From the NCBI RefSeq assembly GCF_008065095.1, contig NZ_CP042911.1, positions 8,940,001 through 8,972,000 on the forward strand: 32,000 nt of DNA, written 5' to 3'. Source of the DNA: Gemmata obscuriglobus (GTDB taxonomy: Bacteria; Planctomycetota; Planctomycetia; Gemmatales; Gemmataceae). Below the pieces are notes generated by a model, which saw only the letters and a program-made list of their open reading frames with translations, did no database searches and was not told the DNA's origin. Every line of letters starts with the position of its first letter. Positions within the stretch are counted from its first letter, which is position 1. The translations under genes and the position numbers were made by a program. Below are positions 131-15,252 of this stretch, piece after piece.

Positions 131-982
131 GTGTCGTTCTTAACACGCGCTTACCCGCGGCGGCGTATCGGCTTCACGCTCATCGAACTCCTCGTTGTGC
201 TCGCCATCATCGCTGTGATGATTGGCCTTCTGCTACCCGCGGTGCAATCGGTGCGGGTCACGGCCAAGCGGATGCAGAACCTGAACAATTTGAAGCAACT
301 CGGGTTGGCCGTTCATCAGTACGCGTCTGCGCGCGGCGGTCGGCTGCCGACATTTCCTTACGAGCAGGTTCCGGGCAGCATTGTACCCAGCACAGTTCAC
401 ATGCAACTTCTCCCGTACGTCGAGCAGGAGAACCTTTACCGGGCCTACTTTCGACAGGGCACGCCGGTGACGGACTCCTACGTCAAGGTGTTCCGTTCGC
501 CGTTCGATGACACCGACTGGGCCTACAAATCAAGTCTGACGAGTTACGCTTACAACCCGCACGTGATCTCACCCTTTCGCCGGATCGAGGGGATTACCGA
601 CGGCACCACCGGGACCATTTTGTTTGCCGAGCGCTACGCCGTTTGTGCCGGCGAGGCGTTCCAGTTCCACAGCCCGATCTCCTACCCATACGGTTCGGCC
701 AGTTCCCAGCGGCCAACGTTCGCGGAATTCGCACGCGGGGATTATTACCCGATCACGAGTGGCGTCCCGCCCGTGAGCGTTGCTTCTGACCGTTCGGTCA
801 CCTTTCAAGTCCGGCCGTTGGCGGGCGAGTGCGACCCGAGGCAGTTAAGCACCGGCGACCCCAAGGGGCTGCCCTGCGCCATGGCCGACGGCAGTGTGCG
901 GGTGGTCAGCCGCGGCGTGGCACCGGCGGCCTTCTGGTCCGCCGTCACCCCGGATGCTGGCGAAGTGGTCCCACTCGACTGA
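131..982 (+). CDS. DUF1559-family protein with prepilin-type N-terminal cleavage/methylation motif (pseudopilin-like)
   Basis: 283-aa ORF with a GTG start and GGAG about 8 nt upstream. The N-terminus [30 protein letters not shown] is the classic prepilin methylation motif plus hydrophobic helix. The C-terminal [10 protein letters not shown]...FWSAV block is typical of planctomycete DUF1559 paralogs. Confidence 0.85.
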
Positions 983-1078
983 GTCGCAGAGTCGGGCGCG
1001 GGTACCGGGCCGACGAGATCGTCGGGGTGTTGAGCGCGTCCGCGGGCGACGCGCGGTGACGGCGCGTACACTACCCGC

Positions 1079-2476
1079 ATGAGCGACAACCCGTTCCGCG
1101 CCCTCCCGTCCGTCGCCAAGGTGCTGGCCAGTCCCGCGCTCGCGCCCGCACACGAGAGCCACCCGGCCGCGGCGGTCACCGCCCAGGTGCGCGCCGCCCT
1201 CGACCGGCTGCGCGACCGGCTGAAAGCCGGTGAACCGCTGTCCGCCGATGTCGATACGATCGCCCGCGAAGCCATGAGCGCGCTCGACGCCCAAAGCCGC
1301 CCCCTCTTGCGATCGGTCATCAACGCGACCGGCATCGTCCTGCACACCAACCTCGGGCGCTCGCCGCTCCACGAAGAGGCCGCCCGCGCCGCTTACGAGG
1401 CCGCCCGCGGGTACCTCAACCTCGAACTCGACCTCGCGACCGGTAAGCGCTCCTCGCGCCAAAGCCCCGTCCGCGCGGGCCTGAAGGCCGTCACCGGAGC
1501 CGAGGGCGCGACGGCCGTGAACAACTGCGCCGCGGCAACCGTGATCGCGCTCCGGGCGATCGCGGCCGGTAAAGAAGTGGTCGTGTCGCGCGGGCAGTTG
1601 GTCGAGATCGGCGGGAGCTTTCGCATCCCCGATGTGATGGCGGTCAGCGGCGCCGCGCTGCGCGAGGTGGGCACCACCAACATCACCCGCCTGAGCGATT
1701 ACGAGCGCGCGATCACGCCCAACACGGCGGCGCTCATGCGGGTGCATTGCAGCAACTACCGCGTGCGCGGGTACACGAAGTCGGTCGAACTCGAAGACCT
1801 CGTCGCGCTCGGGCGCAAGCACAACCTCCTCGTGATCGACGACGCGGGGAGCGGCCAGGTCGCCGACCTCACCCCCTTCGGACTGCCCGGCGAGCCGCTC
1901 ATTTCCGCGAGCGTGTCCGCCGGCGCGGACCTGGTGCTCTTCAGCGGCGACAAGCTCCTCGGCGGCCCGCAGTGCGGGCTCATCGTCGGAAAGGCCGACC
2001 TGATTCAGCGCATCGAGAAGGACCCGCTGATGCGCGCGTTCCGGCTCGACAAAATGACCCTCGCCGCCCTCGAAGCGACGCTGTTACTCCACCGCGACGC
2101 GAAGAAGGCGGTTCGCGACGTTCCCACGCTCCGGATGCTCACAACCCCGCTCGCCGAGCTGAAGCGGCGGACCGAGTCCTTCGCCGAGTGGGTGCGCGAG
2201 ATCCCCGGGGTGACGCTCGGCGTGTGGGAGGACGAGGCGTTCGTCGGCGGCGGCTCGCTGCCGGATGTGAGCGTTCCGACGGTGGTGCTGGGGTTGAGTG
2301 CGGCGGGCCTGAGCGAATCCGAACTCGCGGCGCGTCTCCGCACAGGAACGCCCGCGGTGATGGCCCGCGTTCAGGACGGCCGCGTCCTCCTGGACCTGCG
2401 GTGCGTGCTGGAGCGACAGGAAGCAGAACTGCTCGGCGCGCTCACAATTGCGTGTGCGGAGCACTCACCTTCGTAA
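1079..2476 (+). CDS. selA: L-seryl-tRNA(Sec) selenium transferase
   Basis: 465-aa ORF carrying SelA signatures: VINATGIVLHTNLGRSPL, GGSFRIPDVM, RVHCSNYRVRGYT and the PLP-lysine block FSGDKLLGGPQCGLIVGK, followed by RAFRLDKMTLAALEATLLLH. Confidence 0.92.
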   Translation: MSDNPFRALPSVAKVLASPALAPAHESHPAAAVTAQVRAALDRLRDRLKAGEPLSADVDTIAREAMSALDAQSRPLLRSVINATGIVLHTNLGRSPLHEEAARAAYEAARGYLNLELDLATGKRSSRQSPVRAGLKAVTGAEGATAVNNCAAATVIALRAIAAGKEVVVSRGQLVEIGGSFRIPDVMAVSGAALREVGTTNITRLSDYERAITPNTAALMRVHCSNYRVRGYTKSVELEDLVALGRKHNLLVIDDAGSGQVADLTPFGLPGEPLISASVSAGADLVLFSGDKLLGGPQCGLIVGKADLIQRIEKDPLMRAFRLDKMTLAALEATLLLHRDAKKAVRDVPTLRMLTTPLAELKRRTESFAEWVREIPGVTLGVWEDEAFVGGGSLPDVSVPTVVLGLSAAGLSESELAARLRTGTPAVMARVQDGRVLLDLRCVLERQEAELLGALTIACAEHSPS

Positions 2477-2825
2477 CACTCCGAGGCCGCGCCCAGCGCT
2501 CCCACGGCACGAACAGCACGTAAAACGTCAGCGAGTACAGCGCGAAGTGCCCCACTTCGAGCGTCAGGAATGTGATGATGTGAAACGCCACGCCCATCAC
2601 CAGGCACAGCACGCGGGTCCGCCGAAACGCGAGCAGCACCGGGAACGCCAGCTCCCAGCCGATCGTGACCCACGAACTCAACCGGTGCGCGAACGGCGGC
2701 AAGTACGGGCTCAGGTTCGGCGTCAGCGACCACTCCAGATCGTGGTTCACGAAGTACATCACGTACCCCGTCTGCCACCCCGGGGACACCAGCTTGTAAA
2801 CCGCGCTGAACACGTACAGGCACAC
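2442..2825 (-). CDS. small multi-pass membrane protein resembling only the C-terminal half of an HTTM-type domain; possible gene remnant
   Basis: Only the 3' ~380 nt of the 289-aa minus-strand ORF look coding; upstream of that it is antisense to the hydrolase gene. Hydrophobic segments include SWVTIGWELAFPVLLAFRRTRVLCLVMGVAFHIITFLTLEVGHFALYSLTFYVLFVPWE. Start is uncertain: GTG at 2825 (127 aa) or ATG at 2759 (105 aa). The 3' end overlaps the selA 3' end by 35 nt. Confidence 0.4.
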   Translation of the reverse strand: MCLYVFSAVYKLVSPGWQTGYVMYFVNHDLEWSLTPNLSPYLPPFAHRLSSWVTIGWELAFPVLLAFRRTRVLCLVMGVAFHIITFLTLEVGHFALYSLTFYVLFVPWERWARPRSVTKVSAPHTQL

Positions 2826-2861
2826 GAACTGAACCAGCCGTCGCGCGACTCGGAGGTTGAC

Positions 2862-3785
2862 ATGCCGGTTCCCGGTCGGAAGAGCGCCCGGAGGAGGTGG
2901 AGGGTGTGGCTGCTCGCCCTTGGCGCTCTTGGCGCCACATTTTGGCTGCTGGGCTCCTACGCGGCCGCGTACCGGCTCACGCACCGGGCCGGTCCCCAGC
3001 AGCCGGAGCCGGCGCCCACACTCGCGTGGGGCCGCATCGAGCCGTTTCGCCTGGCCACCGCCGACGGCCAGGAACTCGGCGCGTGGTTCGTTGATGGGCG
3101 CCCCGATCGGCCGCTCGTTCTGTTCCTCCACGGTAACGGCGGGCGCCGGTCCGCGTGCCTCAAGGAGGCGGAACTCATCGCGAGTACCGGGAGCGCGGTC
3201 CTGATGATTTCGTTCCGCGCGCACGGGGACTCGACCGGTGACGTGAACGACTTCGGGTACAGCGGACGGCACGACGTGATCGCGGCAGTCGAGTGGCTCC
3301 GGGCGCGACACCCCGGGCGCCCGGTGGTCGTTTGGGGGCAGTCGCTGGGATCGGCGGCGGCGGTATTCGCCGCAGAGGAGTTAGGGAACCGGGTAGCCGG
3401 CTACATCCTGGAATGCCCCTATCAGGACCTCCGGACCGCGACCCGGAACCGGACCCGTATGTACCTGCCGCCCGGGCTCGAGTTCGTCGCGTACACGGGC
3501 TTCTCCGTCGTCGCGCCGATGCTCCTGTCGAACATCAACGACATTTCTCCGCTGACCGCCGCCGCACGAATTCCGGCGTCGGCTCGGGTGCTGGTTCTGG
3601 CCGGAAGCGCCGATCGTCGCGCGCGACCGACCGAGGCGGCAGCCATCGCCGACGCGATCGGGGAACGGGCGGAGTTGGTCGTCATCGAAGGTGGCGATCA
3701 CCTTCACCTCGCCGCGGCTGAACCGGAACGGTACCGGAAGGCGGTGACCGGCTTTTTGGAGCGGTGTGCGCCGGTCGAGAAGTGA
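2862..3785 (+). CDS. membrane-anchored alpha/beta hydrolase
   Basis: ATG at 2862 inside the longer 2448-3785 ORF. N-terminal anchor RRRWRVWLLALGALGATFWLLG, HG oxyanion block LVLFLHGNGG, nucleophile elbow GQSLGS, and a late GGDHLH histidine block. Confidence 0.85.
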   Translation: MPVPGRKSARRRWRVWLLALGALGATFWLLGSYAAAYRLTHRAGPQQPEPAPTLAWGRIEPFRLATADGQELGAWFVDGRPDRPLVLFLHGNGGRRSACLKEAELIASTGSAVLMISFRAHGDSTGDVNDFGYSGRHDVIAAVEWLRARHPGRPVVVWGQSLGSAAAVFAAEELGNRVAGYILECPYQDLRTATRNRTRMYLPPGLEFVAYTGFSVVAPMLLSNINDISPLTAAARIPASARVLVLAGSADRRARPTEAAAIADAIGERAELVVIEGGDHLHLAAAEPERYRKAVTGFLERCAPVEK

Positions 3786-3808
3786 GCCGGGTCCGGTAGA
3801 ATACCGCA

Positions 3809-4927
3809 ATGGAACCGGTGTACCTCGACCACAACGCGACCACGCCGCTCCGGCCCGAAGTGTGGGAGCGGATGCGGCCGCTGATGCTGGAGACGTTCGG
3901 GAACCCGTCGTCGGCGCACGCGTTCGGGCGGAAGGCCCGTCAGGCACTCGAAGACGCGCGCGAGAAGGCGAGCGCGCTCCTGGGGGCACACCCCGACGAG
4001 CTGACGTTCACCAGCGGGGCGACCGAGGCGAACAACCTCGCGATCTTCGGGCTGCGGCCGGCGCGCGCGGTCGCCTCCCCCATCGAACACCCGTGCGTCG
4101 TGGAACCGCTCCGGCGACTGGAAGCGGGCGGCGCGGCGGTCGAGTGGCTCCCGGCGGACGAGCGCGGGGTGATCGCCTGGCGCGAGCCCGCCGCCGACGC
4201 CGATCTGGTCTGCGTGATGCTCGCCAACCACGAGACCGGAGCGGTTCAGCCGGTCCGCGCGATCGCGGCCACGCTCCCGAAAGGCACGAAGCTCCACTGC
4301 GACGCCGTTCAGGCCGTGGGGAAGATCGGGGTCGATTTTCACGAACTCGGCGCGACCACCCTCACTGCCAGCGCGCACAAGTTCGGCGGGCCGAAGGGGG
4401 TCGGGCTGCTGCTCACGAGGCGCGGCACGGACCTGAAGCCGCACACCTTTGGCGGGCACCAGCAGGGCGGCCGGCGCCCGGGTACGGAACCGGTCGCGCT
4501 CGCCGTCGGGATGGCCGCGGCGCTAGAGATCGCGACCCGCGACCTCGCTGCGAACCGGGCGGCGCTCGCCGCGCACCGGGCGCGGCTCTGGGACGCCCTG
4601 CGGCGCGAGTGCGCGCCCGTTGTGCTGAACGGTCCCGAGATCGGGGCCGCGGACGTGGCACCGGCCGCGCTGAACGTGTCGTTCCCGGGGTGCCGGGCGG
4701 ACCTACTCCTCATGTCCCTCGACCTGGCCCGGGTCGCGTGCTCGACCGGGTCCGCGTGTTCGAGCGGGAGCCTGTTACCCAGCCCCGTACTGCGGGCGAT
4801 GGGCGTACCGGACGAGGTACTGAAGTCGGCACTCCGGTTCAGCTTCTCGCCGGCACAAACGAGCGCCGAGATCGACGAAGCGGCAGCTCGCATCGCCCGC
4901 TGCGTGCGGATGACGCGCAACGGGTAA
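3809..4927 (+). CDS. cysteine desulfurase, class V aminotransferase (NifS/IscS family)
   Basis: 372 aa. N-terminus YLDHNATTP, then FTSGATEANN, PLP-lysine motif SAHKFGGPKGVG and the active-site cysteine loop CSTGSACSSGS. Starts 23 nt after the hydrolase stop, so probably co-transcribed. Confidence 0.9.
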   Translation: MEPVYLDHNATTPLRPEVWERMRPLMLETFGNPSSAHAFGRKARQALEDAREKASALLGAHPDELTFTSGATEANNLAIFGLRPARAVASPIEHPCVVEPLRRLEAGGAAVEWLPADERGVIAWREPAADADLVCVMLANHETGAVQPVRAIAATLPKGTKLHCDAVQAVGKIGVDFHELGATTLTASAHKFGGPKGVGLLLTRRGTDLKPHTFGGHQQGGRRPGTEPVALAVGMAAALEIATRDLAANRAALAAHRARLWDALRRECAPVVLNGPEIGAADVAPAALNVSFPGCRADLLLMSLDLARVACSTGSACSSGSLLPSPVLRAMGVPDEVLKSALRFSFSPAQTSAEIDEAAARIARCVRMTRNG

Positions 4928-4997
4928 CGTGAAATCTTTGAGTTCGTCCGGAGGTGCCGCAAACCGGACCCAGTCGTTTCAAGCTGGTCGTATGCTC

Positions 4998-5033
4998 GCG
5001 CCGCACACACAGGAATGTCTGTGCCACAAGAAA
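4998..5033 (+). repeat. REP-like hairpin element, family 1, copy 1
   Basis: gcgccgcacacacaggaatgtctgtgccacaagaaac. The core GCACA(C/G)ACA-GGAA-TGTCTGTGC folds into a 9-bp stem. It sits in the convergent intergenic gap between the desulfurase and flavoprotein genes. Near-identical copies lie at 20992-21024 and 21036-21068. Confidence 0.8.
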
Positions 5034-5058
5034 CAAACACAACTACCCGGACCATGAA

Positions 5059-6297
5059 TCAGAGCTGGCGGCCCGCGAGCCGTCCCGTGCTCCACGCGGA
5101 CTGGAAGTTGTACCCGCCGATCCAGCCGTCGAGGTCGAGCAGTTCGCCCGCGAAGTACAAGCCCGCCGCGCGCTTGCTCTGCATCGTGCGCGAATCGACC
5201 TCGTCCAGGCTCACCCCGCCGGCGGTGACCTCGGCCTTCTCGAACCCGAGTGTCCCGCGCAGCGGCATCCGGAGTCGCTTCGTCGCGCCCACCAGGGCGA
5301 GGCGGTCGGCCTTGGCCAGCGCCGCGGCCTTACGGTCCGCCGCCATGCCGCACAGCGCCAGGAGCTGGTCGGCAAGCCGGCGCGGGAGCTTGTCCGCGAG
5401 CACCACCGCGAGTTGCTTCTTGCCCGACGCCAGCGACTCGGCTTGCAAGAAATCGTTGAACGCCTGCTCCGGCTCGGTCGGGAGAAAATCGGCTTCGAGG
5501 GTCAGTGACCGCGGCTCGGCGTGCCCGCTCACCGCCCGGCTCACGTCCAGCGGCGCCGGCCCGGTGAGGCCGAAGTGCGCGAACAGCATCGAGCCCCGGC
5601 GCTGCGTGAGCGCCTTACCCTGCGGGGGAAGCACCTTCAGGTTCACGTCGGGCAGGGTGATGCCGCGCAGCTCGCCGACCCATTCGGGCTGGACCGTGAG
5701 CGGCACGAGGGCCGGGCTCTGGCCCACGATCGTGTGCCCGAACTTGGCCGCCAGGGCGTACCCGTCGCCGGTGGTGCCGCACCCGGGGTACGACCGGCCG
5801 CCGGTGGTGAGCAGCACCCGCTCGGCGGTTAACGTGCGCGCGGGTGTGAGCACCCGGAACCCGCCGTCGGGGCGCGGCTCCACGTCTTTTACCGGCTCGT
5901 TCAGCGCGAGCACGGCCCCGCTCCGCGCGAGCCGCTTCAGGAGCGCGTCGAGGACATCGACCGCACGGTCGCTGACCGGGAACACCTTACCGGTATCCTC
6001 GACTTTTGTTGCCACGCCTTCGCCGTTAAAGAACGCGACTGTTTCGCGCGGCCCGAGCGCCGCGAGCGCGGAGTGGAGGAACTTCCCGTTCGGCCCGAAC
6101 GCCTCAACAATGCCCCGGGCGTCGCAGTCGTGGGTGATGTTGCACCGCGTCCCGCCGCTCATCAGGATTTTGACGCCGGGCTTCTTCCCCTTCTCCAGAA
6201 GCAGAACCCGACGCCCTCGCTCGGCAGCATGAATTGCGGCCATCAACCCCGCTGCACCAGCCCCGGCGATGATTGCGTCGTAGTCGAACGTCGTCAT
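5059..6297 (-). CDS. FAD-dependent oxidoreductase, HI0933/BaiN (aminoacetone-oxidase-like) family
   Basis: 412 aa. N-terminal dinucleotide fold DAIIAGAGAAGLMAAIHAAERGRRVLLLEKGKKPGVKILMSGGTRCN. Family-typical C-terminus EVTAGGVSLDEVDSRTMQSK...GLYFAGELLDLDGWIGGYNFQSAWSTG. Confidence 0.9.
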   Translation of the reverse strand: MTTFDYDAIIAGAGAAGLMAAIHAAERGRRVLLLEKGKKPGVKILMSGGTRCNITHDCDARGIVEAFGPNGKFLHSALAALGPRETVAFFNGEGVATKVEDTGKVFPVSDRAVDVLDALLKRLARSGAVLALNEPVKDVEPRPDGGFRVLTPARTLTAERVLLTTGGRSYPGCGTTGDGYALAAKFGHTIVGQSPALVPLTVQPEWVGELRGITLPDVNLKVLPPQGKALTQRRGSMLFAHFGLTGPAPLDVSRAVSGHAEPRSLTLEADFLPTEPEQAFNDFLQAESLASGKKQLAVVLADKLPRRLADQLLALCGMAADRKAAALAKADRLALVGATKRLRMPLRGTLGFEKAEVTAGGVSLDEVDSRTMQSKRAAGLYFAGELLDLDGWIGGYNFQSAWSTGRLAGRQL

Positions 6298-6361
6298 GGA
6301 AACACCAAGTTACCCGGCCGCTATACTTGATTCGGCGCGCCGTTCAGGAGAATTTGAAGGC

Positions 6362-6706
6362 ATGAACGTCCGACTGATAGCACCCGACACCACTGGCGGC
6401 ACACGTTACCTCTGGCTCACTCCGGGAGCAGAGTACGAAGTCCTCGGAATTGAGGCCGACTGGTTACGGCTTCTCAACGACCGGGGGGAGCCGGTACTGT
6501 ACGACCCGGCTTGCTTCGAGATGATCGATCCGACAGAACCGGAAGATTGGGTGTCGGTGGTGGAGGATGGTGTCAGGTACGCGTACCCACCGGCTTGGGG
6601 ATGCCCCGGCTTCTTCGAGGACTGGCACGACGGGGCTCCAAAAGTCCGCGAACAGTTCTCAACGACTTTGGCCCAGCGGTCTGCGAACTCGTCATCACGA
6701 TCGTGA
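6362..6706 (+). CDS. hypothetical small protein (cassette 1)
   Basis: 114 aa from the ATG at 6362, with AGGAGA about 10 nt upstream; the ORF-track start at 6296 would overlap the flavoprotein start codon. Visibly lower GC than flanking DNA. Sequence MNVRLIAPD...YEVLGIEADWLRLLNDRGEPVLYDPACFEMIDP...YAYPPAWGCPGFFEDWHDG. No family recognised with confidence. Confidence 0.6.
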   Translation: MNVRLIAPDTTGGTRYLWLTPGAEYEVLGIEADWLRLLNDRGEPVLYDPACFEMIDPTEPEDWVSVVEDGVRYAYPPAWGCPGFFEDWHDGAPKVREQFSTTLAQRSANSSSRS

Positions 6707-6732
6707 CGGAGTTCGTTACGTAAAATTTCCCC

Positions 6733-6888
6733 GCACCGCGTCCCGCCGCTCATGAGGATCTTGACGCCGGGCTTCTTCCCATTTTCCAGAAGCAACACCC
6801 GGCGCCCCCGCTCGGCGGCGTGGATCGCAGCCATAAGCCCGGCGGCTCCGGCACCGGCGATAATCGCGTCGTAATCGAAGCTGATCAT
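6733..6888 (-). pseudogene. displaced 5' fragment B of the flavoprotein gene (codons 1-52)
   Basis: Encodes MISFDYDAIIAGAGAAGLMAAIHAAERGRRVLLLENGKKPGVKILMSGGTRC, 49/52 identical to the intact gene start at 6142-6297. Nucleotide identity is only about 80% by hand count. Homology stops exactly after the TGC (Cys52) codon. Confidence 0.85.
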
Positions 6889-6935
6889 GGTCACAGGGGA
6901 CTCCGAATCTGCCGTCAAGCAAAAGACGAATATGC

Positions 6936-7313
6936 TTATGTCTCACTGGATGGTTCGGCCCATGCGAGTTGAAGCTCCTCCCAGGATTTGTAGCCCTTGA
7001 CCCAAGGGAACTTCGCCCCTGTCTCCTTGGTCCAGGTCAGGTGAACAAACGCGAGTGGCATCTCAGGATGGGCGGTGAAGAAAAGAAACTCGTTCGGGTC
7101 ACCACCGTTCCGGGCAATAGGAGAGCACGGCACTTGAAATAGTTGGTGGGCAGGGCTGACCTCTCGCTGAAGTTCATCGGCAAGGGAGTCGGATGGAGGT
7201 TCCCCACCAAACGTCTCGGCCATGATACGGGGGTATCCAAGCCAAGTGTCACCGGCGGGGATTGGTGCCCAGTTGGCAGGCCAAGCAAAGCCTTCCGGCG
7301 GCGTTGGTGTCAT
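6936..7313 (-). CDS. hypothetical small protein (cassette 2)
   Basis: 125-aa ORF with an ATG start 3 nt after the stop of the fragment-C mini-ORF. One 60-nt sample line counted 57% GC, against ~80% in a selA line. Sequence includes ELQREVSPAHQLFQVPCSPIARNGGDPNEFLFFTAHPEMPLAFVHLTWTKE. No family recognised with confidence. Confidence 0.6.
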   Translation of the reverse strand: MTPTPPEGFAWPANWAPIPAGDTWLGYPRIMAETFGGEPPSDSLADELQREVSPAHQLFQVPCSPIARNGGDPNEFLFFTAHPEMPLAFVHLTWTKETGAKFPWVKGYKSWEELQLAWAEPSSET

Positions 7314-7316
7314 GAG

Positions 7317-7454
7317 TTATTCCCCGAGCCGGGTTCGATGCAAAATTCCGTCGCATCGCGTCCCGCCGCTCATCAGTATCTTGACGCCGGGCTTCTTCCC
7401 TTTCTCCAGCAGCAACACCCGACGCCCTTGCTCGGCAGCGTGGATCACGGTCAT
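7317..7454 (-). pseudogene. displaced, 5'-truncated fragment C of the flavoprotein gene, now a 45-codon mini-ORF
   Basis: 7353-7454 encodes MTVIHAAEQGRRVLLLEKGKKPGVKILMSGGTRC, matching residues 19-52 of the intact protein. Homology ends after the same TGC codon as fragment B. The frame then runs 11 unrelated codons to TAA at 7317-7319. Confidence 0.8.
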
Positions 7455-7509
7455 TAGTACCGTGGTTCAGGCTCATGCTACTCGCGGAAAATCCCTGCTC
7501 TAAAGCAAC

Positions 7510-7542
7510 GGCCCCGGTCCTTTCTTGCGAAGGACCGGGGCC
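7510..7542 (-). terminator. hairpin downstream of the giant surface-protein gene
   Basis: ggccccggtcct / aggaccggggcc form a 12-bp perfect GC-rich stem with a 9-nt loop, 34 nt past the stop at 7576. On the minus strand it is followed by only a weak GTTGCTTTA tract. Confidence 0.5.
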
Positions 7543-7575
7543 GCGCCCGAACTCACGTTGAGCTCGCGTTCGGAA

Positions 7576-10500
7576 CTACTTCGGGGCACTGCCGCCCACG
7601 AACACGCCGCTCGTGGACGGGGCCTGGCCCGGCGGGATGGCGATGAAGCTGTCGAGCAGCAGCGACGGGTCGAGCCCGCTGAACGCCTTCACGTGCGGGG
7701 CGCCACCGGCCGAACCGGTGAGGATGTCGGCGAGCCGGTCCCCGTTGCGGTCCGCGACCGCGACCCGCACCCCGAACGGGGCCGGCGAGCCGTTCCCGTT
7801 GGTGTACGCGAAGAAGCTCGCCACCTCGGACCCGTCCAGCCGCAGCGCCTTCACGTGCGGGGCGTTGGTGGCCCCGGTCACGATCTCCGCCCGCCCGTCC
7901 CCGTCCAGGTCGCCGGCGGCCACGTAGATCCCACCCAGGTACCCCGCGCCGTATGCGAAGTAGCTGCCGATCTGCTGCCCGCTCGCCGAGAACGCCTTCA
8001 CGTGGCCGGCGAACGTGGCCGACCCGGTGATCACGTCGGCCCGGCCGTCCCCGTCCACGTCGCCCGCGGCCACCGTCACCCCGACCGGGTTACCCCCGCC
8101 GTAGGCGAAGAAGCTCAGGATGGTGCTCGGGTCGGCCGTGCCGTTCGCGGCGATGCCGCCGTTCAGCAGCGACCGGCCGGAGAACGCCTTCACGTGGTCG
8201 TTACTGGCGGCGGTGCCGATCACCACGTCACCGAACCCGTCGCCGTCCACGTCGCCGACCGCGACGTTGACGCCGCCGTTGTACCCGAGGAACGTGAAGA
8301 AGCTCGACAGCAGCCCGAACGACACGCCGTCGTACACCTTCACGTGGCCGCCCGGCGCGCCCGCCCCGGCGGACACCACGATGTCGGCAACCCCGTCGTT
8401 GTTCACGTCGCCGGTCGCCACCTTCACACCGCCGGTGTACTGGTCGAACGGCTGGAACGTGCCGACCAGTGCCCCGGTAGTCGAATCGAACACCTGCACC
8501 GTTGCCACCGGGCCCGCGTCCGACCCGACCACCACCCGGTTCTGCCGGTCCACCACTTGCGTCACGGTCGCCGTGCTCGCACGGTAGAAGCTGTCGCCCG
8601 AGTACGTCACGGTCACCGTCGCCGTACCCGGGGGCAGGGCCGCGGTGCTGAACACCGCCCGGCCCGTGGCGTCCAGGGCCACGACCCCGAGCACCGCTCC
8701 GGTCGCGGAGTTGGTGAACGTGAACGTCCCGGTCGGCGTCTGCAGCCCCGACTGCTCCCCCACGCCGGCCAGGAACGACGTGACGCTCCCAAACACCACC
8801 GGCCCTTGCAGAGCCGTCAGGGTCGTGGTCGAAGGAACGGTAACGGCCTGAACTATTGCGGCGGTAGCAGTCAGGTACGGAGACGCTGTTGGAACCGTCT
8901 GCGGAGTGTACACGGCGGTGATCGTGTGCGACCCGTTCACGAGGGCCGAAGTCGTCAGCACCGCCACCGCCGAATTCCCGGACCCGGCCGTCAGCGTAAC
9001 CGGTGCGCCGATGTTGACCCCGTTGTCCTGGAACTGGACCGTGCCCAGCGGCATCGGGTCGGCGCCAGCGGTCGGGGTGATCGTGAAGGTGAACGTGACC
9101 GCCGAGCCCGGCAGCGACGGGTTGTTGTTTGAAACGAGCGAGGTGGTCGTGGCGTTCGCCACCTGAGTGACGACGACACTGGTGGCCAGGTAGCTAACCT
9201 GGTACACCCGGTTGTTGAGCGTGAACGTGCCCTGGTCGGGCAGACCGTTGAACGCCCCGCTCACCCCGCCCGCCGCGGTCAGGATGGTGAACGAGTCACC
9301 GAGCGTCGGAGTGAAACCGAGGTTGAAGCCCAAAGTAGCGCCGTTGAGGTTCGCAGTCCCGGTAGTCACGTACCGGTCGTACTGCGTGCCCACCGTCGTA
9401 CCGTTCACCTCGACCAAGAAGGTCGAGCCGGCGCTAAACGTCAAGTTGCCGGTGCTGTTCAGAATGCCCGGGCTCGTACCGGGTGCCAGGACGCCACCCG
9501 GGTTGACCGTAACGGCGCCGACCGTACCGGTGCCGCCGAGCGTAGCGCCGCCCTGCACCACGACGCTCGCGCTGCTCTGGTTGGCCGTGACCAGCAACGT
9601 GCCCCCGGCCACGACACTGCTACCGGTGTAAGCAGGACTGTTACCGGTCAGGGTCAACGTACCGGCGCCCACTTTCGTGAGGGTGCCGCTCCCGGTGATC
9701 GGCCCGGCGAACGTGTCGTTGCCGTTACTCACCCCAGTTGCGAGGTTGCCGCCGGCGCCCAGGTCCAGCGTGCCGGCCCCGGTCAGCGACGCGACCTGGT
9801 CGCTGACCCCGGGGTTCACCGTCAGAGTGCCCGTCGTCACGACCACCCCGGTGTCGGGCAGGGCGTTGTTCACCCCCACCACGATCGCCCCGTTGAGCCC
9901 GTTGACCGTGGTCGTGCCCGTGTAGGTGTTGACGGCGTTCAGGACCAGTTGGCCCGAACCGGTCTTGATGACCCCGGCCCCGGCGGCGCCGCTCATCACG
10001 GCGTTCATTTGGAGCGTGGGCTGGGCCGCACCGACGATCGTGGGCGGGGGGGCCAGCGGGGGCAGCGGCGGGTTGCTCACCACCAGGTTGTTGAACGTCG
10101 CCTGGTTGGACTGGTAATTGGAGTCCCCAGAGGTGAACACAGCGGTGATCGTGTGCGTGCCGATCGTCAGCGTGTTCGTGGTCAGCGTCGCCACGCCGTT
10201 GACCAGGATCACCTGGCCGCTGATCGGGGTCGCGCCGTCGAAGAACTGCACCGTCCCGGTCGGCACCGGGTCGTTGGTTCCGGGGGTCAGGCGGTACGTG
10301 AACGTCACGTTGGCGCCGGTGGCGGTCGGGTTGTTGTCGGCGGTGAGTTGGATCGCCGCCGGGGTCGTCACCACCTGGCTGGGCACCAGCGTCGCGACCC
10401 CGCTGGTGTAGTTGGTGTTCCCGTTCTCGGGTATGAACTGGGCCGTGATCGTGTGCGTGCCGGGTGTAAAGCTCACGTCCCGGGTTGCGCTACCGGCGTT

Positions 10501-13500
10501 GAGCGGCACAGTGCCACCGATTGGAACGCCGTTGTCGAAGAACTGGACGCTCCCGGCCGGCACCGGGTCGCCCGCCTTACCGCTTGCCACGAACGTCAAC
10601 GTGACGAGGCTTCCGGGAGGGGCCGGGTTGAGGTTCGATGTGAGCAGCATGATGGGGGGGACACCCACCACCTGACTTGGCGCAAGCGGAACATCAGTCA
10701 CCGTCGGGGCGTAAGTCGGGGTGAGCCCACCGCTCCCAAAGTACCTGACAGTAATCGTGTGCGTACCGGGTGTCAGGTTCGGTGTCGTCACCGACGCCGA
10801 ACCGCCGACGACGTTCTGAATAGTGCCGATCTGGACGCCGTTATCATAGAAGCTGACGGTCCCGGTCAGCGCCGGCGCGCCGGGGAGGGTAATAAAGTTG
10901 GCCGTGAACGTCACGTTCTCGGTCACGCCCGCCGGGTTGTTGCTCGACGAAACCTGGATAATATACGGATTTACAACAACCTGAGCCGGCGTCAGGGTGT
11001 AAGTATTGGCCGTGTAGTTGCCGCCGAAATACTGGGCGCGAATCGTGTGCGTGCCCGGGGTCAGGCCACTCGTCGTCACCGACGCGACCCCGTTGTTGCC
11101 CACGGTGTTCAGCGCGACCGGCGCGCCGATGGGGGTGGTGCCGTCGAAGAACTGCACCGTCCCGTTCGGAATCACGCCGCCCGACGGCGGGATCGCGGTG
11201 AACGTGAACGTCACGTTCCCGTTGCTCGTCACCGAGTTGGAACTCGAGGAGACGATCCCCGCAATGGTGCCCGCAGCAGGCGTTGGAGCGGCAATGATGG
11301 TCTGATTTGCCGTCAGCCGCCCCGTCCCGCCCGCATAGAAGTTGTCTCCGGAGTAGACGGCGGTAATGGTGCGCGAGCCGACTCCGAGCGTGGTCGGCGA
11401 GATCGTCGCCTGCCCGTTGACGAGTGCCACCGGGGCGCCGATCCCGACGCCGTTGTCGAAGAACTGCACGGTCCCAGTCGGCACCGGGTCGCCCGCCCGC
11501 CCCGTGGCGATGAATGTGAGCGGCACAGCGCTGGCGGCAATGGCCTGGTTCGCGCCAGAAATCACCGTGAGGAGGGGGGTGCCGCCCACGACCAGGGTCG
11601 GGGCGAGCGGCACGACCCCGGGCAGGTACACGTTCGCATCGCCGGTGTACGCCGCGGTGATGGTGTGCGTGCCGACCGTCAGCGCGCTGGTGGTCAGCGT
11701 CGCCACCCCGTTGGCGTCGAGCGCGACCGGTGCCCCGATCGCGACGCCGTTGTCGAAGAACTGAACGCTCCCGCCCGGCGTCGGGGCGGACGAGTCCCCG
11801 CTGGCGATGAACGTGAACGTCACGGGGCTGCCCGGCGCGACCGGGTTGCCGCTCGACCGGAGCACGAGCTGGGCCGGCGTACCCACCTGCTGGTTCGCGA
11901 GGGTCACCTGAACCGGGGAGTAGGTGCCGTCGCCGCTGTACGCGGCCGTGATCTGGTGCGACCCGACCGGCAGGGTCGTCATGTACGTCGCCGTTCCGAG
12001 GGCCGACAGCGCCACCGGCGCGCCGATGGGGTTCGGCCCGTCGAAGAACTGCACGGTCCCGGTCGGCACCGCTTCACCCGCCCGGGGCGGCAGGTTGAAC
12101 GTGAACGTGATGACCTGCCCGGCCAGCGCCGGCGAGGCGCTCGACGTGAGCACGGCCCGCTCGCTCGGGTTCACGATCACCAGGCTCTGATCCAGGGGCA
12201 CGGTCGAGGGGGCGTAGTTCGCGTCGCCGGTGTACACGGCGGTGATGGTGTGCGCGCCGACCGTCAACACGTTCGCCTGCACCGTGAAGGTCGCCGTGCC
12301 GGCGAGCACGGTCGCCGTGCCGAGGAAAATGTTGCCGTCGAAGAACGACACCGTCCCGGTCGGCACGGGGTCCCCGGGGTTCCCGGTCACCGTGAAGGTG
12401 AGCGTCACGGTCCCGCCGGCCTGGGCCGGGTTCCGGTTCGCCGAGAACGTGGTGGCCGCCCCCGGGAGGAAGGTGAAGGTCCGCGTGGTGGACCCGAGGA
12501 ACACGTTCCCGGTGATCCTCGACATCTCGGACGAGCCGAAGGTCGCTACGTTGGTCGTGAGGATCAGCGAGCCCGCACCCGTTGTCACCTCGCCGCCCTG
12601 GAGCGCCAGCGGCCCGACCGTTTCGTTGGAGCCGTTCAGGTCGAACAGCCCGGACGAGTTGACCGTAATGGCCCTGGTGTCGGGGATCTGGTTCGGGGCG
12701 TCCAGGCGCAACACGTCCGCGTTGTTGCCGCCCTGCCCGTCGCCGACGATGATCGCCCCGGCGACGGCGTTGACCGTGGTGCCGACGGGGGCGATCTTCT
12801 TGAGCGACACCGTACCCTGTTCGATCTGGAGCGTATCGACGAAGGTGTTGGAGGCGGTGCCGGTGAGCTTCAGCTCACCGGCGCCGAGCTTCCGGATCTT
12901 GGCGTCACCGCTGACGACGTTGCTGAACTCGAGCGACCCGGTCGCGCCGGTGACGTTGATGATGGCCTCGTCGCCGGGGCCGATCTGGTTGTTCCCGATC
13001 ACGCTCACGGTCCCGGTCCACACGTTGGTGCCGGAACTCACCTGGAGCGCCGCGGAGGAGCCGGCCGCGCTGGTGAGGGTGAGCGCCTCGTTCTGGACGG
13101 TGATGCCGCTCGCGAGCACCAGGGCGGCGCCGGAGGCGACCGTGGTGCCGGCGCCGCCGGTGCCGCCGAACCCGCCGCCCCTCGTGACCGTCGTGACGCC
13201 GTTGCGCAGCGTCAGCGCCCCGAGGAAGGTGTTGGTGTTGGTGATGCTGACCGTGCCGGTTCCGACCTTCGTCAGGTTCTGCCCGGCCGCGCCGCCGATG
13301 ACCCCGCTGATGGTCAGGTCGGTGTTCGGGTCGTTCGAGATCGTCGTTGTCGAGGCGATCGTCACGGTCCCGGCCACATCGATCACGGTGTGGACCGCCG
13401 GGGTGGCCGCGTTGTCGGTGATCGACAGCGCGCCCCCGGTGTACCCCGGCCCGTTGAGGGTGAGGTTCTTCTGCAGCGTGTACTGGCCCTGAAGCTCGAG

Positions 13501-15252
13501 GGTGCCGAACGACTGGTTCGTGATGTCGGAGTTCACGGTGATCGCGCCACCACGCGGGGCGGTGGTGCGGGTCGCGGGGCCGAGCACGTTCGGCCCCTGC
13601 ATGACGAGGACGCCGTTGTTGACGAACGTGTTGCCGCTGAACTCGAGGTTCGGGTTCGGGAAGATCACCGTGCCCTTGCCCCATTTCGACAGGCTGGCGT
13701 TCGCGACGACCGGCCGGTTGAGCGCCCGGTACGCCTGGAGGGAGAGGGCCTCGGTCGGCGTCAGGAGGGCCGTGGCCGCCGCGCTCGCCGGCAGGTTGGC
13801 GAGGTGACCGCTGACCAACAAGGCCCCACCGTCAAACACCCCGATGGTGGCGTTGCCCTCCAAGAAGATCGCGCTCCGCCACTCCGCGGGCGTCGTGCGG
13901 TTGGCCCCTTGCGCGAACAGGGCGCCGAGCGGCTGATTGTTGTTGCCCGTGTCCGCGAGCCCGGTGCCGTTCAGGATGAGCAGTTCGTCGTCGATCACGC
14001 GGGCGCCCGACACCGGGTTGCTCAACAGCGCGAGCGTCGCGCCGCTGCTGACCACCGTGTAGGAGCCCGGCGACAGGGCGTCGTCGTTGCTGATCGCGAG
14101 GGACCCGGCGTTAACGAACGTGACACCGCCGTAGGTGTTCGCCGTCGTCAGCGTGATCGTGCCTATAGTCGTCAGGTTTCCAGACCCAGAGACCACCCCG
14201 CTGATCGTCAGCCGGCCGCCGACCGTCGCCGACGGGTTCAGGGTCACCCCGTTCAAAACCGTACCGCCGGTGAGCGGGTCGACGCCGTCGCCGCCGAAAA
14301 GAGCGCCCTGGCCCCCGACGCCGGTCCCCTGAATCGTGAGCGACTCGCGGAAGTTCGACACGTTCACCCTGAGCGTCGCCCCGTTCAGCACGTTCGTGCC
14401 GACGGCGGTCAGGCCGAGGGCGTTGTTGCTGTTGGCGAGGAGGACGCCTTGTTGCACCTCGACGAGGCCGGCGAACGTGTTGTTCCCGCCGGCGGCCCCC
14501 GTTACCGGGTTCCTCCCGCCGAGCGAGATCGTTCCGTCACCGAGTTTGATAAAGCCCACCTGTGACGGGTTCGCGGCGGCCGGTGAGGTGCCGATGTTGC
14601 CGATGATGTTCAGCGTCCCGGCCGCGTTGGTGGCCGTGAAGTTCTGCGCCTCGTTGCTCAGTTGCATCCGGAAGTAGAGCGTACTACTGCCGGCACCCAA
14701 GTACGTGATCCCGTCCGTGACGGTCAGCGTCCCGAGGTTCGTGGGAGCGTTGCCCTGGGGGAAAAGTGGCTCATCCACGACCTGATCGACGATGAGCCAG
14801 CCCGCGTCCTTGATGGTAATGGAGCGGACCGTTTGGGTGAGGTCCATCACCGAGTTGGGAGTGGGTACAAACCTGTCAGTCGTATAATATTTGAAATAGT
14901 TCGCACTGCGCGGCAGAGTACCGCCATAGAACGCCGCGGTCTCGAACACCACGTCGTCCCCGCTCGTGGGGACGCCGAGGTCCCAGTTGAGCGGGTTCGA
15001 CCAGCTAAGATCACCGCTCTCGCCGACGTCGTTGGGGTTGACGGGCGCACCGTTTGCGTCCACAGGGCCGACGTTGGTGGTCCCGCTCCCGTTGAAGTCG
15101 AAGTCCGGCACCGCGCCGCCGGTCCACGTGATGATGGCCGGCATGGCGCGGTTTTCTAGCGCCTCAAGCGTGAGCGCGTTTTGGAACGGGGCGACCGTGC
15201 CGTGGCCCGTGAACTTATTGCGGAACAGTTGGCGGAGCCAAGAAGGCAACAT
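7576..15252 (-). CDS. giant (2558-aa) secreted/cell-surface repeat protein: autotransporter-associated beta-strand (PATR) repeats, Ig-like repeats and C-terminal FG-GAP repeats
   Basis: A single uninterrupted ORF. The N-terminus has LTLEALENRAMPA. PATR-type units include NLTKVGTGTVSITNTNTF, IRKLGAGELKLTGTASNTF and GTLTKVGAGTLTLTGNSPAYTG. There are about 10 Ig-like units of the form VTFTF...PTGTVQFFDG...GTHTITAVYSGD, and 5 clear GDVDGDGxADxxxG FG-GAP calcium-loop motifs. Confidence 0.93.
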   Translation of the reverse strand: MLPSWLRQLFRNKFTGHGTVAPFQNALTLEALENRAMPAIITWTGGAVPDFDFNGSGTTNVGPVDANGAPVNPNDVGESGDLSWSNPLNWDLGVPTSGDDVVFETAAFYGGTLPRSANYFKYYTTDRFVPTPNSVMDLTQTVRSITIKDAGWLIVDQVVDEPLFPQGNAPTNLGTLTVTDGITYLGAGSSTLYFRMQLSNEAQNFTATNAAGTLNIIGNIGTSPAAANPSQVGFIKLGDGTISLGGRNPVTGAAGGNNTFAGLVEVQQGVLLANSNNALGLTAVGTNVLNGATLRVNVSNFRESLTIQGTGVGGQGALFGGDGVDPLTGGTVLNGVTLNPSATVGGRLTISGVVSGSGNLTTIGTITLTTANTYGGVTFVNAGSLAISNDDALSPGSYTVVSSGATLALLSNPVSGARVIDDELLILNGTGLADTGNNNQPLGALFAQGANRTTPAEWRSAIFLEGNATIGVFDGGALLVSGHLANLPASAAATALLTPTEALSLQAYRALNRPVVANASLSKWGKGTVIFPNPNLEFSGNTFVNNGVLVMQGPNVLGPATRTTAPRGGAITVNSDITNQSFGTLELQGQYTLQKNLTLNGPGYTGGALSITDNAATPAVHTVIDVAGTVTIASTTTISNDPNTDLTISGVIGGAAGQNLTKVGTGTVSITNTNTFLGALTLRNGVTTVTRGGGFGGTGGAGTTVASGAALVLASGITVQNEALTLTSAAGSSAALQVSSGTNVWTGTVSVIGNNQIGPGDEAIINVTGATGSLEFSNVVSGDAKIRKLGAGELKLTGTASNTFVDTLQIEQGTVSLKKIAPVGTTVNAVAGAIIVGDGQGGNNADVLRLDAPNQIPDTRAITVNSSGLFDLNGSNETVGPLALQGGEVTTGAGSLILTTNVATFGSSEMSRITGNVFLGSTTRTFTFLPGAATTFSANRNPAQAGGTVTLTFTVTGNPGDPVPTGTVSFFDGNIFLGTATVLAGTATFTVQANVLTVGAHTITAVYTGDANYAPSTVPLDQSLVIVNPSERAVLTSSASPALAGQVITFTFNLPPRAGEAVPTGTVQFFDGPNPIGAPVALSALGTATYMTTLPVGSHQITAAYSGDGTYSPVQVTLANQQVGTPAQLVLRSSGNPVAPGSPVTFTFIASGDSSAPTPGGSVQFFDNGVAIGAPVALDANGVATLTTSALTVGTHTITAAYTGDANVYLPGVVPLAPTLVVGGTPLLTVISGANQAIAASAVPLTFIATGRAGDPVPTGTVQFFDNGVGIGAPVALVNGQATISPTTLGVGSRTITAVYSGDNFYAGGTGRLTANQTIIAAPTPAAGTIAGIVSSSSNSVTSNGNVTFTFTAIPPSGGVIPNGTVQFFDGTTPIGAPVALNTVGNNGVASVTTSGLTPGTHTIRAQYFGGNYTANTYTLTPAQVVVNPYIIQVSSSNNPAGVTENVTFTANFITLPGAPALTGTVSFYDNGVQIGTIQNVVGGSASVTTPNLTPGTHTITVRYFGSGGLTPTYAPTVTDVPLAPSQVVGVPPIMLLTSNLNPAPPGSLVTLTFVASGKAGDPVPAGSVQFFDNGVPIGGTVPLNAGSATRDVSFTPGTHTITAQFIPENGNTNYTSGVATLVPSQVVTTPAAIQLTADNNPTATGANVTFTYRLTPGTNDPVPTGTVQFFDGATPISGQVILVNGVATLTTNTLTIGTHTITAVFTSGDSNYQSNQATFNNLVVSNPPLPPLAPPPTIVGAAQPTLQMNAVMSGAAGAGVIKTGSGQLVLNAVNTYTGTTTVNGLNGAIVVGVNNALPDTGVVVTTGTLTVNPGVSDQVASLTGAGTLDLGAGGNLATGVSNGNDTFAGPITGSGTLTKVGAGTLTLTGNSPAYTGSSVVAGGTLLVTANQSSASVVVQGGATLGGTGTVGAVTVNPGGVLAPGTSPGILNSTGNLTFSAGSTFLVEVNGTTVGTQYDRYVTTGTANLNGATLGFNLGFTPTLGDSFTILTAAGGVSGAFNGLPDQGTFTLNNRVYQVSYLATSVVVTQVANATTTSLVSNNNPSLPGSAVTFTFTITPTAGADPMPLGTVQFQDNGVNIGAPVTLTAGSGNSAVAVLTTSALVNGSHTITAVYTPQTVPTASPYLTATAAIVQAVTVPSTTTLTALQGPVVFGSVTSFLAGVGEQSGLQTPTGTFTFTNSATGAVLGVVALDATGRAVFSTAALPPGTATVTVTYSGDSFYRASTATVTQVVDRQNRVVVGSDAGPVATVQVFDSTTGALVGTFQPFDQYTGGVKVATGDVNNDGVADIVVSAGAGAPGGHVKVYDGVSFGLLSSFFTFLGYNGGVNVAVGDVDGDGFGDVVIGTAASNDHVKAFSGRSLLNGGIAANGTADPSTILSFFAYGGGNPVGVTVAAGDVDGDGRADVITGSATFAGHVKAFSASGQQIGSYFAYGAGYLGGIYVAAGDLDGDGRAEIVTGATNAPHVKALRLDGSEVASFFAYTNGNGSPAPFGVRVAVADRNGDRLADILTGSAGGAPHVKAFSGLDPSLLLDSFIAIPPGQAPSTSGVFVGGSAPK
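7600..8560 (-). repeat. FG-GAP (integrin-alpha-like beta-propeller) repeat region at the C-terminus of the giant gene
   Basis: Repeated blades of the form ...HVKAFSG...FFAYGxG..GGV.VAAGDVDGDGRADVITG. Five D-x-D/N-x-D-G loops were read: GDVNNDGVADIVV, GDVDGDGFGDVVI, GDVDGDGRADVIT, GDLDGDGRAEIVT and ADRNGDRLADILT. Confidence 0.75.
8575..9165 (-). repeat. two further Ig-like repeats inside the giant gene
   Basis: Units AVTFTFTITPTAGADPMPLGTVQFQDNG...GSHTITAVYTP and QTPTGTFTFTNSATGAVLG...ATVTVTYSGDSFY. Boundaries are approximate. Confidence 0.6.
10085..12460 (-). repeat. eight tandem Ig-like domain repeats (~300 nt period) inside the giant gene
   Basis: The nucleotide block gtcgaagaactgcaccgtcccggtcggcaccgggtc (encoding PTGTVQFFD) recurs near 10238, 10534, 11144, 11455, 11752, 12040 and 12338. 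Boundaries are approximate. Confidence 0.75.

Follow-up and report, generated by a model that had tools for sequence, protein, structure and literature searches.

How does a conserved gene come to have two diverged copies of its own beginning lying upstream of it, with a small gene set between each copy and the next? This question is raised by a stretch of 32,000 nucleotides of Gemmata obscuriglobus (NCBI RefSeq assembly GCF_008065095.1, contig NZ_CP042911.1, positions 8,940,001 to 8,972,000), which is here called the window. The gene in question encodes a flavin adenine dinucleotide (FAD) flavoprotein. The protein is a full-length match to PF03486 (HI0933_like; 2.6e-80, 269.8 bits, cut-off 50) and to NCBIfam TIGR00275 (9.9e-124, 413.2 bits, cut-off 183.8), and the gene is conserved across the Gemmataceae, with 80 orthologous loci at 61-99% identity. 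In this study, we propose, with a probability of about one half, that non-autonomous single-gene mini-cassettes have accreted in the 5' coding block of the flavoprotein gene, each supplying a replacement 5' end to the gene that it entered.

Diverged gene starts and the cassettes between them

A repeat search of the locus detected a single family of direct repeats, whose copies begin at 6142, 6733 and 7353, at spacings of 591 and 620 bp. These copies, here called blocks A, B and C, are listed in Table 1 with the other features of the array. An earlier note on the window, made from its letters alone, had described the same three copies, and both the repeat search and a three-way alignment agree with it. 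In the alignment, the homology between A and B extends from about the start codon through the TGC of ...MSGGTRC, and both B and C part from A at the first base after this TGC, which is codon 52; the shared point at which homology is lost had likewise been recognised before. Block C is presumably the oldest copy, and the hairpin that follows it marks the outer limit of the array.

Table 1. Position of the flavoprotein gene, its displaced 5' copies and the associated features in the window.
Feature	Position	Strand	Description
Intact target gene	5059..6297	-	412-aa HI0933-like FAD flavoprotein, aminoacetone-oxidase family
Block A	6142..6297	-	Codons 1-52 of the intact gene
Intergenic region	6298..6361		Divergent, 64 nt, between block A and ORF1; assigned to cassette 1
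ORF1	6362..6706	+	114 aa, cargo of cassette 1 (591 bp)
Junction motif 1	6715..6732	-	GGGGAAATTTTACGTAAC, directly after TGC of block B; left end of cassette 1
Block B	6733..6888	-	Displaced complete copy of codons 1-52; start codon 6886-6888
ORF2	6936..7313	-	125 aa, same orientation as the flavoprotein gene, cargo of cassette 2 (620 bp)
Junction motif 2	7333..7352	-	GACGGAATTTTGCATCGAAC, variant, directly after TGC of block C; left end of cassette 2
Block C	7353..7454	-	Displaced, 5'-truncated copy (codons 19-52); outermost
Hairpin	7509..7543		Perfect, 14 bp, inverted repeat 100% complementary; just 3' of the stop of the 2558-aa gene

Blocks A and B differ at 27 of 156 nucleotides and at 3 of 52 amino acids, with a synonymous divergence (dS) of 1.0, a nonsynonymous divergence (dN) of 0.044 and a dN/dS ratio of 0.044. 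The earlier note had the number of replacements and the mostly synonymous character of the changes right; its hand count of 18-20% nucleotide divergence is replaced by the computed 17.3%. The other two pairs each differ at 13 of 102 nucleotides, A and C at 3 of 34 amino acids (dN/dS 0.079) and B and C at 4 of 34 (dN/dS 0.119); the translations show the extra replacements A20T, A21V and R27Q in block C. Since dN/dS lies at 0.04-0.12, the copies diverged while they were functional gene starts, and they were under purifying selection as such before they were displaced, which had been suspected from the letters. The differences are spread unevenly over the block: the first 114 nt account for 25 differences between A and B (22% of positions), and only 2-3 positions distinguish the three copies over the final 42 nt. 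Block B is the most similar of the three to the blocks of other Gemmata. An open reading frame (ORF) of 170 amino acids at 6406-6918 (-) contains the block B start codon and then more than 100 codons antisense to ORF1. The GC content of its three codon positions (0.50/0.61/0.66) is unlike that of a gene; it is probably not one, and annotation pipelines may call it a truncated oxidoreductase.

The segments of 591 and 620 bp each hold one real ORF, and their GC content is below that of the flanks (0.54-0.62 across 6200-7500, 0.69-0.78 on either side), in keeping with the earlier description. A promoter and terminator consensus scan of 6000-7700 gave no match, and neither ORF1 nor ORF2 matched Pfam or NCBIfam. 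For ORF1, 46 homologues were found in all; one is an annotated G. obscuriglobus protein with 100% identity, and the others among those aligned are 47-75% identical. An AlphaFold2 model of ORF1, with a predicted local distance difference test (pLDDT) score of 87.6, predicts an SH3-like beta-barrel followed by helices, and matches to SH3 folds are weak. ORF2 has 9 homologues at 60-69% identity with many invariant columns, and a fold search with it gave no match. Its ATG lies 39 nt past the junction, and its GC content at third codon positions (GC3) is 0.60.

Directly after the break, both displaced blocks are followed by versions of a shared junction motif of about 18 nt, GAGGNAATTTWACGTNAC. The strings AAAATTTCC at 6722-6730 and AAAATTCC at 7342-7349, which had first drawn attention to it, are both present at these positions. 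Junction motif 1 is the sole zero-mismatch match to the pattern in the whole window.

The same architecture in other Gemmataceae

To place the array among its relatives, one genome per species was scanned, which gave the 80 Gemmataceae loci with the orthologous gene, and displaced fragments were sought in them using the N-terminal 60 residues. Displaced 5' fragments lie upstream of an intact gene in five of the 80 species: locus L005 (Gemmata sp.), L014 (an unclassified planctomycete metagenome-assembled genome, MAG), L031 and L033 (both Limnoglobus) and L061 (Fimbriiglobus). L014 has two such fragments and, like the window, three copies of the gene start. Four of the five species (L005, L014, L031 and L033) share the terminal codon of the fragments with the window, and every junction except that of L061 bears a related motif after the break. 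A sixth genome, L001, has a degraded junction. Any estimate of frequency is based on the five species among 80, the window and L001.

The sequence after the break reads GAGGCAAATATACGTCAC in L005, GAAAGGATTTAACGTGAC at both junctions of L014 and GAGGCAATTTAACGCAAC in L001; in L031 and L033 it is ATTTCACGTTRAC, a variant 7 nt shorter. Beyond about 18 nt past the break the cassettes are unrelated. A 13-nt degenerate form of the motif has five matches on both strands of the roughly 1 Mb of fetched loci, all of them at junctions (block B of the window, L001, L005 and twice in L014). The search for the motif elsewhere, which the earlier note had called for, thus found this 13-nt form again at the L001, L005 and L014 junctions and nowhere else in these loci. 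In a position-weight-matrix scan for weaker copies, high scores were confined to the training junctions.

Three of these loci hold further pieces that may be of a similar kind. At L001:6372-6412 a motif-like GAATTTTATGTAAGC lies in opposite orientation about 15 nt beyond the block remnant and forms an inverted pair with the first motif; this pair could have arisen by chance in AT-rich sequence or be left over from another junction. L014:7950-7996 holds a fourth, tiny block-end remnant (atc atg tcc ggt ggg tca acc tgc, that is IMSGGSTC) 12 nt upstream of the intact ATG, which may be the trace of a further event or a cargo-less unit. In L061 (5355-7856), a recent duplicate of codons 1-54, with 92% identity to the intact gene start, stands 2.5 kb upstream. 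It ends 8 nt past the usual breakpoint (TGCAACAT|) with no motif, and the insert carries a gene for a 557-aa pyrroloquinoline quinone (PQQ) beta-propeller protein on the opposite strand.

The cargo differs among the cassettes and is found in either orientation. ORF1 is reversed relative to the flavoprotein gene in both the window and L001, and ORF2 is forward. An ORF of 107 amino acids, ORF3, is the common cargo of L005, L031 and L033, so that one cassette family occupies this site in both a Gemmata sp. and Limnoglobus. In L014, the first cassette carries an SMI1/KNR4 protein (Pfam 3e-10) and the second a lipoprotein-like ORF. All seven motif-bearing cassettes are approximately 430-900 bp long, and each has exactly one intact conserved ORF. 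Forward-oriented cargo begins 39-45 nt past the junction, and in L014 and L001 an in-frame TAA within the motif ends the truncated block peptide. Judged from this arrangement, it is plausible that the promoter of a displaced gene start would drive the transcription of forward cargo. The surroundings of the other ORF1 and ORF2 homologues mostly have nothing to do with the flavoprotein gene, except in L001 and L090, where an ORF1 homologue is the divergent neighbour of the gene and the interval corresponding to 6298..6361 is homologous to that of the window. L001 retains the motif and a 6-nt block remnant, CGGTGC; L090 has lost both.

The comparison of relatives, which had been suggested as a check, yielded both empty sites and different cargo at the same codon across the Gemmataceae loci. 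The clearest pair is found in Limnoglobus, where L035 has an empty and L031 an occupied site. Over the 300 nt upstream of the block, the two are identical at 295 positions (98%), and the displaced block of L031 matches the only block of L035 at 144 of 150 positions (96%). In L031, this displaced block is followed by a 430-bp ORF3 cassette and then by a second block joined to the gene. The second, gene-proximal block has 11 differences to the L035 block in 150 nt, all in its first 109 nt. L033, whose flavoprotein is 98.1% identical to that of L031, has the same insertion; L035 (flavoprotein 96.7% identical to that of L031), L034, L038 and L081 are without it. This pattern of presence and absence is compatible with, and not proof of, excision of the cassette to a circle and re-integration at attB.

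Base composition also sets the gene-proximal block apart. Across 76 genomes, the GC3 of the block minus that of the rest of the gene has a mean of +0.03 (standard deviation 0.07); the difference is -0.16 in the window and -0.17 in L014. Block A has a GC3 of 0.74 and the rest of the flavoprotein gene one of 0.90. Within block A, the first 38 codons have a GC3 of 0.68, like ORF1, and the last 14 codons one of 0.93. In comparison with G. algarum (L004), the closest relative, block A is 87% identical and most of the remaining gene about 96-97%, and synteny between the two genomes stops at the start codon. From the Limnoglobus pair, the GC3 test and the G. algarum comparison, we conclude that the gene-proximal block arrives with the insert.

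Two further observations come from G. algarum. At the position of the cassettes, L004:3931-6140 holds a gene pair of foreign composition (GC3 0.72-0.78, compared with 0.90), encoding an N6/N4 DNA methyltransferase and a 347-aa protein without a Pfam match, which is probably a restriction-modification system; no displaced 5' fragment and no motif were found there. Within the flavoprotein gene itself, window positions 5986-6063 (codons 79-104) are only 83% identical to G. algarum (13/26 third positions) in a gene that is otherwise 96-97% identical, and this second patch of raised divergence suggests an independent recombination tract.

Proposed mechanism of insertion and competing explanations

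In the mechanism that we propose, a circular or donor cassette would consist of the left-end motif of about 18 nt, one small ORF in either orientation and an upstream region with codons 1-52 of the flavoprotein gene. The block of the cassette would recombine with the resident block, at codon 52 or up to about 45 nt before it, so that the 5' end of the cassette is joined to the gene body and the gene stays intact. The resident 5' end would thereby be pushed upstream, where it would abut the motif of the incoming cassette. A second insertion would repeat the process, which would make copy A, with ORF1, the newest and copy C the oldest. The reaction may be carried out by a site-specific recombinase that is encoded elsewhere in the genome and acts in trans, with free circular cassettes as substrates and the motif as part of the recombination site. 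Potentially, it is freely reversible, since attL would read like attP and attR like attB; reversibility would fit the patchy distribution.

The earlier note had read the locus as site-specific insertion at one codon with replacement of the 5' end. Insertion at one place with a replacement 5' end is borne out by the recurrent breakpoints, the L035/L031 pair and the GC3 values. That the process is site-specific we infer from the recurrent breakpoint and the motif. The last 41 nt of the new block in L031 are those of the empty site, and the displaced block has four differences in that part, so the exchange may have taken place some 35-45 nt before codon 52 and not exactly there. Either the crossover falls near codons 38-41, or this stretch is kept uniform. 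Among 78 orthologues, there is no clear drop in synonymous variation around codons 38-59 relative to other parts, and no obvious constraint at the DNA level was seen.

A number of results weigh against the proposal that mini-cassettes accrete by a dedicated recombinase. The informative sites of L031 suggest a crossover inside the block and not at the boundary of homology, an outcome that RecA-mediated recombination would produce just as well. Compared with block C, block B has a more native look; its GC3 is 0.88 next to the 0.60 of ORF2, and this mismatch implies that block and cargo do not always share a history or that blocks become hybrids. The arrangement of ORF1 could be partly inherited rather than newly inserted, given L001 and L090. 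ORF1 is 75% identical between genomes whose host genes are 77% identical, and ORF3 is 81% identical between L005 and Limnoglobus, with the host gene at 74%; these ORFs have diverged about as much as the host genes, so that no transfer can be shown to be recent. Two degenerate-pattern scans of metagenome contigs each gave 0 further junctions. In a Pfam search, the sizeable ORFs of the window showed neither Phage_integrase nor any other recombinase domain, jackhmmer with two IntI seeds detected no IntI-like integrase or pseudogene at the 5' side of the gene in the 80 loci, and the gene lists of seven loci show no integrase at its 5' end. At the junctions, single-strand folds have z values of -1.5 to +0.9 compared with shuffled sequences, with no attC-like fold, and nothing resembling the core site of a recombinase, such as a spacer between inverted arms, was recognised.

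The alternative that survives best attributes the locus to homologous recombination only, and we regard it as rather doubtful. According to it, one or a few ancient illegitimate events made a block-insert-block structure, RecA recombination after DNA uptake spread such alleles, and arrays grew by unequal recombination, with neither a dedicated recombinase nor a circle. That no recombinase was found near the site is what this explanation expects; the near-identical last 42 nt of A, B and C would be a good recombination substrate, the exchange points between L031 and L035 fall inside the block, and the divergence of the cassettes tracks that of their hosts. In addition, the displaced block of L031 has an old-looking, damaged 3' end beside a pristine 5' part, as if an array allele had been imported by two crossovers. 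However, it leaves unexplained that at least five unrelated cargo genes, in both orientations and in different genera, share one position directly behind the motif of about 18 nt at one and the same codon, and that every insert is a compact unit with a single ORF. Moreover, beyond the short conserved stretch at their 3' end, copies with 13-17% divergence serve RecA poorly as substrates. Even with a recombinase as the maker of the junctions, homologous recombination probably has a part in spreading the cassettes among close relatives. For tracing the origin of each block by nearest neighbours, 102-156 nt are too short; all blocks are 80-90% alike, and at this length their phylogeny is not resolvable.

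It is improbable that the cassettes are decayed integrase-bearing islands or prophages, which would have used the 5' part of the gene as attB and carried a replacement 5' end in attP, and of which deletions would have left one attL-proximal gene. Direct repeats of the target end, a restored gene and tandem accretion are the classic signature of such elements, and larger inserts do occur at the same gene start, namely the restriction-modification pair of L004 and the 2.5 kb of L061. Against this stand the integrase searches just described, which found neither an IntI-like integrase nor a pseudogene of one at the site in the 80 loci and none in the seven gene lists. The seven motif cassettes are all of 430-900 bp with one intact ORF, which independent random deletions would not give. 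The viral contig collection, searched by pattern scan and by N-terminal protein scan, contained nothing relevant and no attP-like block. The jackhmmer search compared two integron integrases with every ORF of 100 aa or more in 83 loci and would miss unrelated recombinase families; integrase, excisionase and replication genes were found in none of the units examined. The sole jackhmmer match, at L057:9440-10938 in a Fimbriiglobus MAG, is a tyrosine integrase that follows a tRNA gene just downstream of the flavoprotein gene; it belongs to a common type of island that targets tRNA genes and has no relation to the 5' site.

That integron cassettes were inserted by IntI at a secondary site, as a cluster resembling a CALIN, is essentially refuted. 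The idea has some appeal: a homologue of ORF1 (54% identical) is a genuine attC-flanked integron cassette in L003, another in L002 lies in an array of small ORFs near an IntI-like gene, and each unit of about 0.6 kb holds a single ORF and is stacked with the others at one site, which agrees in size and content with integron cassettes (0.5-1 kb, with one ORF that usually lacks a promoter). Insertion by IntI at secondary sites is documented (PMC4889954). An attC site was taken to be an imperfect palindrome of 57-141 nt at the 3' end of a cassette that contains the boxes R'' (RYYYAAC) and R' (GTTRRRY) and forms a hairpin when folded. No R''/R' pair 47-157 nt apart was found on either strand of 6100-7500 or in the cassette regions of L001, L005, L014 and L031, whereas the same script recovered at least 10 canonical attC sites of 98-100 nt in the L003 control, and the junctions do not fold beyond their shuffled controls. 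The break is not at G|TT, and secondary-site insertion does not duplicate 156 bp of the target. With the attC scan, the folds and the domain search all negative, the earlier statement that the units are integron-like in size and that the window holds no visible recombinase has been upheld; a distant intI in another part of the genome is conceivable. The cargo belongs to a pool of small mobile accessory genes, for which the vehicle here is a different one.

The L003 locus itself (248-12330) is a complete planctomycete integron. Its 475-aa integrase has the IntI-specific patch (KYP..W.FLFP...RRHH), recognised by eye, and at least 10 same-strand cassettes follow with attC sites of 98-100 nt (GCCTAAC...GTTAGGC) that share an inner 20-nt palindrome, CGTGTGCCGCAG.

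Other types of recombination site were also considered at the junctions. No dif-like 28-bp sites, with an XerC arm, a 6-bp spacer and an XerD arm, were found on inspection of all junctions: ATTTAACGTGA resembles an inverted XerD arm, with no conserved spacer or partner arm. A Xer/dif assignment was rejected, there being by eye only a chance-level GGTGCG match to E. coli dif and this partial XerD arm. The same holds for a nick site of HUH or rolling-circle enzymes, to which AATTTTAC was compared by eye; it is partly like the geminivirus nonanucleotide and has no conserved partner elements. The repeat search of the window detected no inverted pair bounding a module.

An assembly artefact, or in-situ tandem duplication followed by decay, is refuted: nothing beyond the existence of the repeats speaks for it, the copies are 13-17% apart at almost exclusively synonymous positions, the intervening DNA is unrelated between modules, and independent assemblies of other genera have the same architecture.

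Accretion of single-gene cassettes with a replacement 5' end is therefore the reading that we prefer, and the results point to an integron-like but attC-free mode of small-gene capture that was previously undescribed. It is tempting to go further and to see in the flavoprotein gene a cassette-capture platform of the Gemmataceae that is parallel to the integron. In such a platform, the first 52 codons and the motif of about 18 nt would serve as the recombination site, the gene would be restored at each event, the newest unit would lie next to the gene, expression from displaced starts would be possible, the cargo pool would be shared with integrons, and the enzyme would act in trans. We put this more complete picture forward tentatively, as one that is more likely wrong than right.

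Known systems, significance and genomic surroundings

Elements that replace the end of the gene into which they integrate are well known. Phage 21 and e14 replace the 3' end of icd, and islands targeting tRNA and transfer-messenger RNA (tmRNA) genes behave similarly. As in the window, the att site of such elements lies inside a gene, a diverged copy of the gene end is carried along, and the displaced end is left as a direct repeat. At the flavoprotein gene, direct repeats of the target-gene end are present and the gene is reconstituted by an element-borne copy. In tycheposons, successive integrations push older elements outward and leave partial target repeats (bioRxiv 10.1101/2020.12.28.424599), and here too repeated integration would give a tandem array with the oldest unit outermost. 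In contrast to all of these, it is the 5' end of a protein gene, from the start codon to codon 52, that is replaced here, the units are only 430-900 bp long with one ORF, and no integrase was found in the units examined.

Integrons, and CALINs, which are attC clusters without an adjacent integrase (PMC4889954), resemble the array in other respects: compact single-ORF units are stacked with the newest next to the platform, and their cargo consists of small accessory genes or genes of unknown function, the ORF1 family being common to the window and the L003 integron; in CALINs, too, the recombinase need not be encoded next to the units. Unlike in integrons, there is no attC site and no G|TT crossover here; the repeat is a coding 5' block with an 18-nt motif, the platform is a conserved enzyme gene instead of an attI beside intI, and the cargo may lie in either orientation.

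Short modules without a recombinase, for which the enzyme is encoded elsewhere, are also familiar from the cis-mobilisable elements of streptococcal integrative and conjugative elements (ICEs) and from Xer-dependent pdif modules. The cassettes described here are likewise short and recombinase-less. They differ from these trans-mobilised, att-flanked modules in that paired 28-bp XerC/XerD sites and a linked ICE are missing, the site lies within a coding sequence, and the end of a gene is replaced. In the orphan arrays of rhs and cdiA, incoming modules recombine in a conserved coding segment and displace the older module, and SMI1/KNR4 immunity genes are typical cargo. There, as here, the displaced module keeps a fragment of the conserved coding segment; however, in rhs/cdiA it is the variable 3' toxin end that is displaced, whereas the 5' peptides of the present array are near-identical and the cargo is a separate gene. 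What would be new is the combination of end-replacing integrative elements with a reduction to integron-sized, recombinase-less cassettes at the 5' coding block of a gene.

If the cassettes are mobile, they would give bacteria a second, attC-independent way of accumulating small accessory genes at one fixed site of the chromosome, and this in a phylum about whose mobile elements little is known. The interior of a conserved gene would then be targeted at no cost, by means of a replacement 5' end with its own start codon. The 156-bp block and the 18-nt motif are a defined, testable substrate for finding a new recombinase specificity, and truncated gene starts followed by a conserved motif are a signature with which other genomes can be mined. 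If homologous recombination alone is responsible, the locus would still be a clear case of a short conserved coding stretch that nucleates a hotspot of gene insertion.

The surroundings of the array are as follows. Upstream of it, a gene at 7576-15252 (-) encodes a protein of 2558 amino acids that has numerous Ig-like (Big_3_5) repeats and, at its C terminus, FG-GAP repeats, and the repeat families detected at 7640-8450 are the FG-GAP units of this protein. In none of the other loci examined is this gene the upstream neighbour of the flavoprotein gene. On the other side, within 1079-4927 of the window, a SelA selenocysteine synthase (1079-2476) lies upstream of an alpha/beta hydrolase and a class-V aminotransferase. 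The latter (3809-4927) is similar to cysteine desulfurases or selenocysteine lyases and is convergent with the flavoprotein gene; as its downstream neighbour, it is common to the window and G. algarum only.

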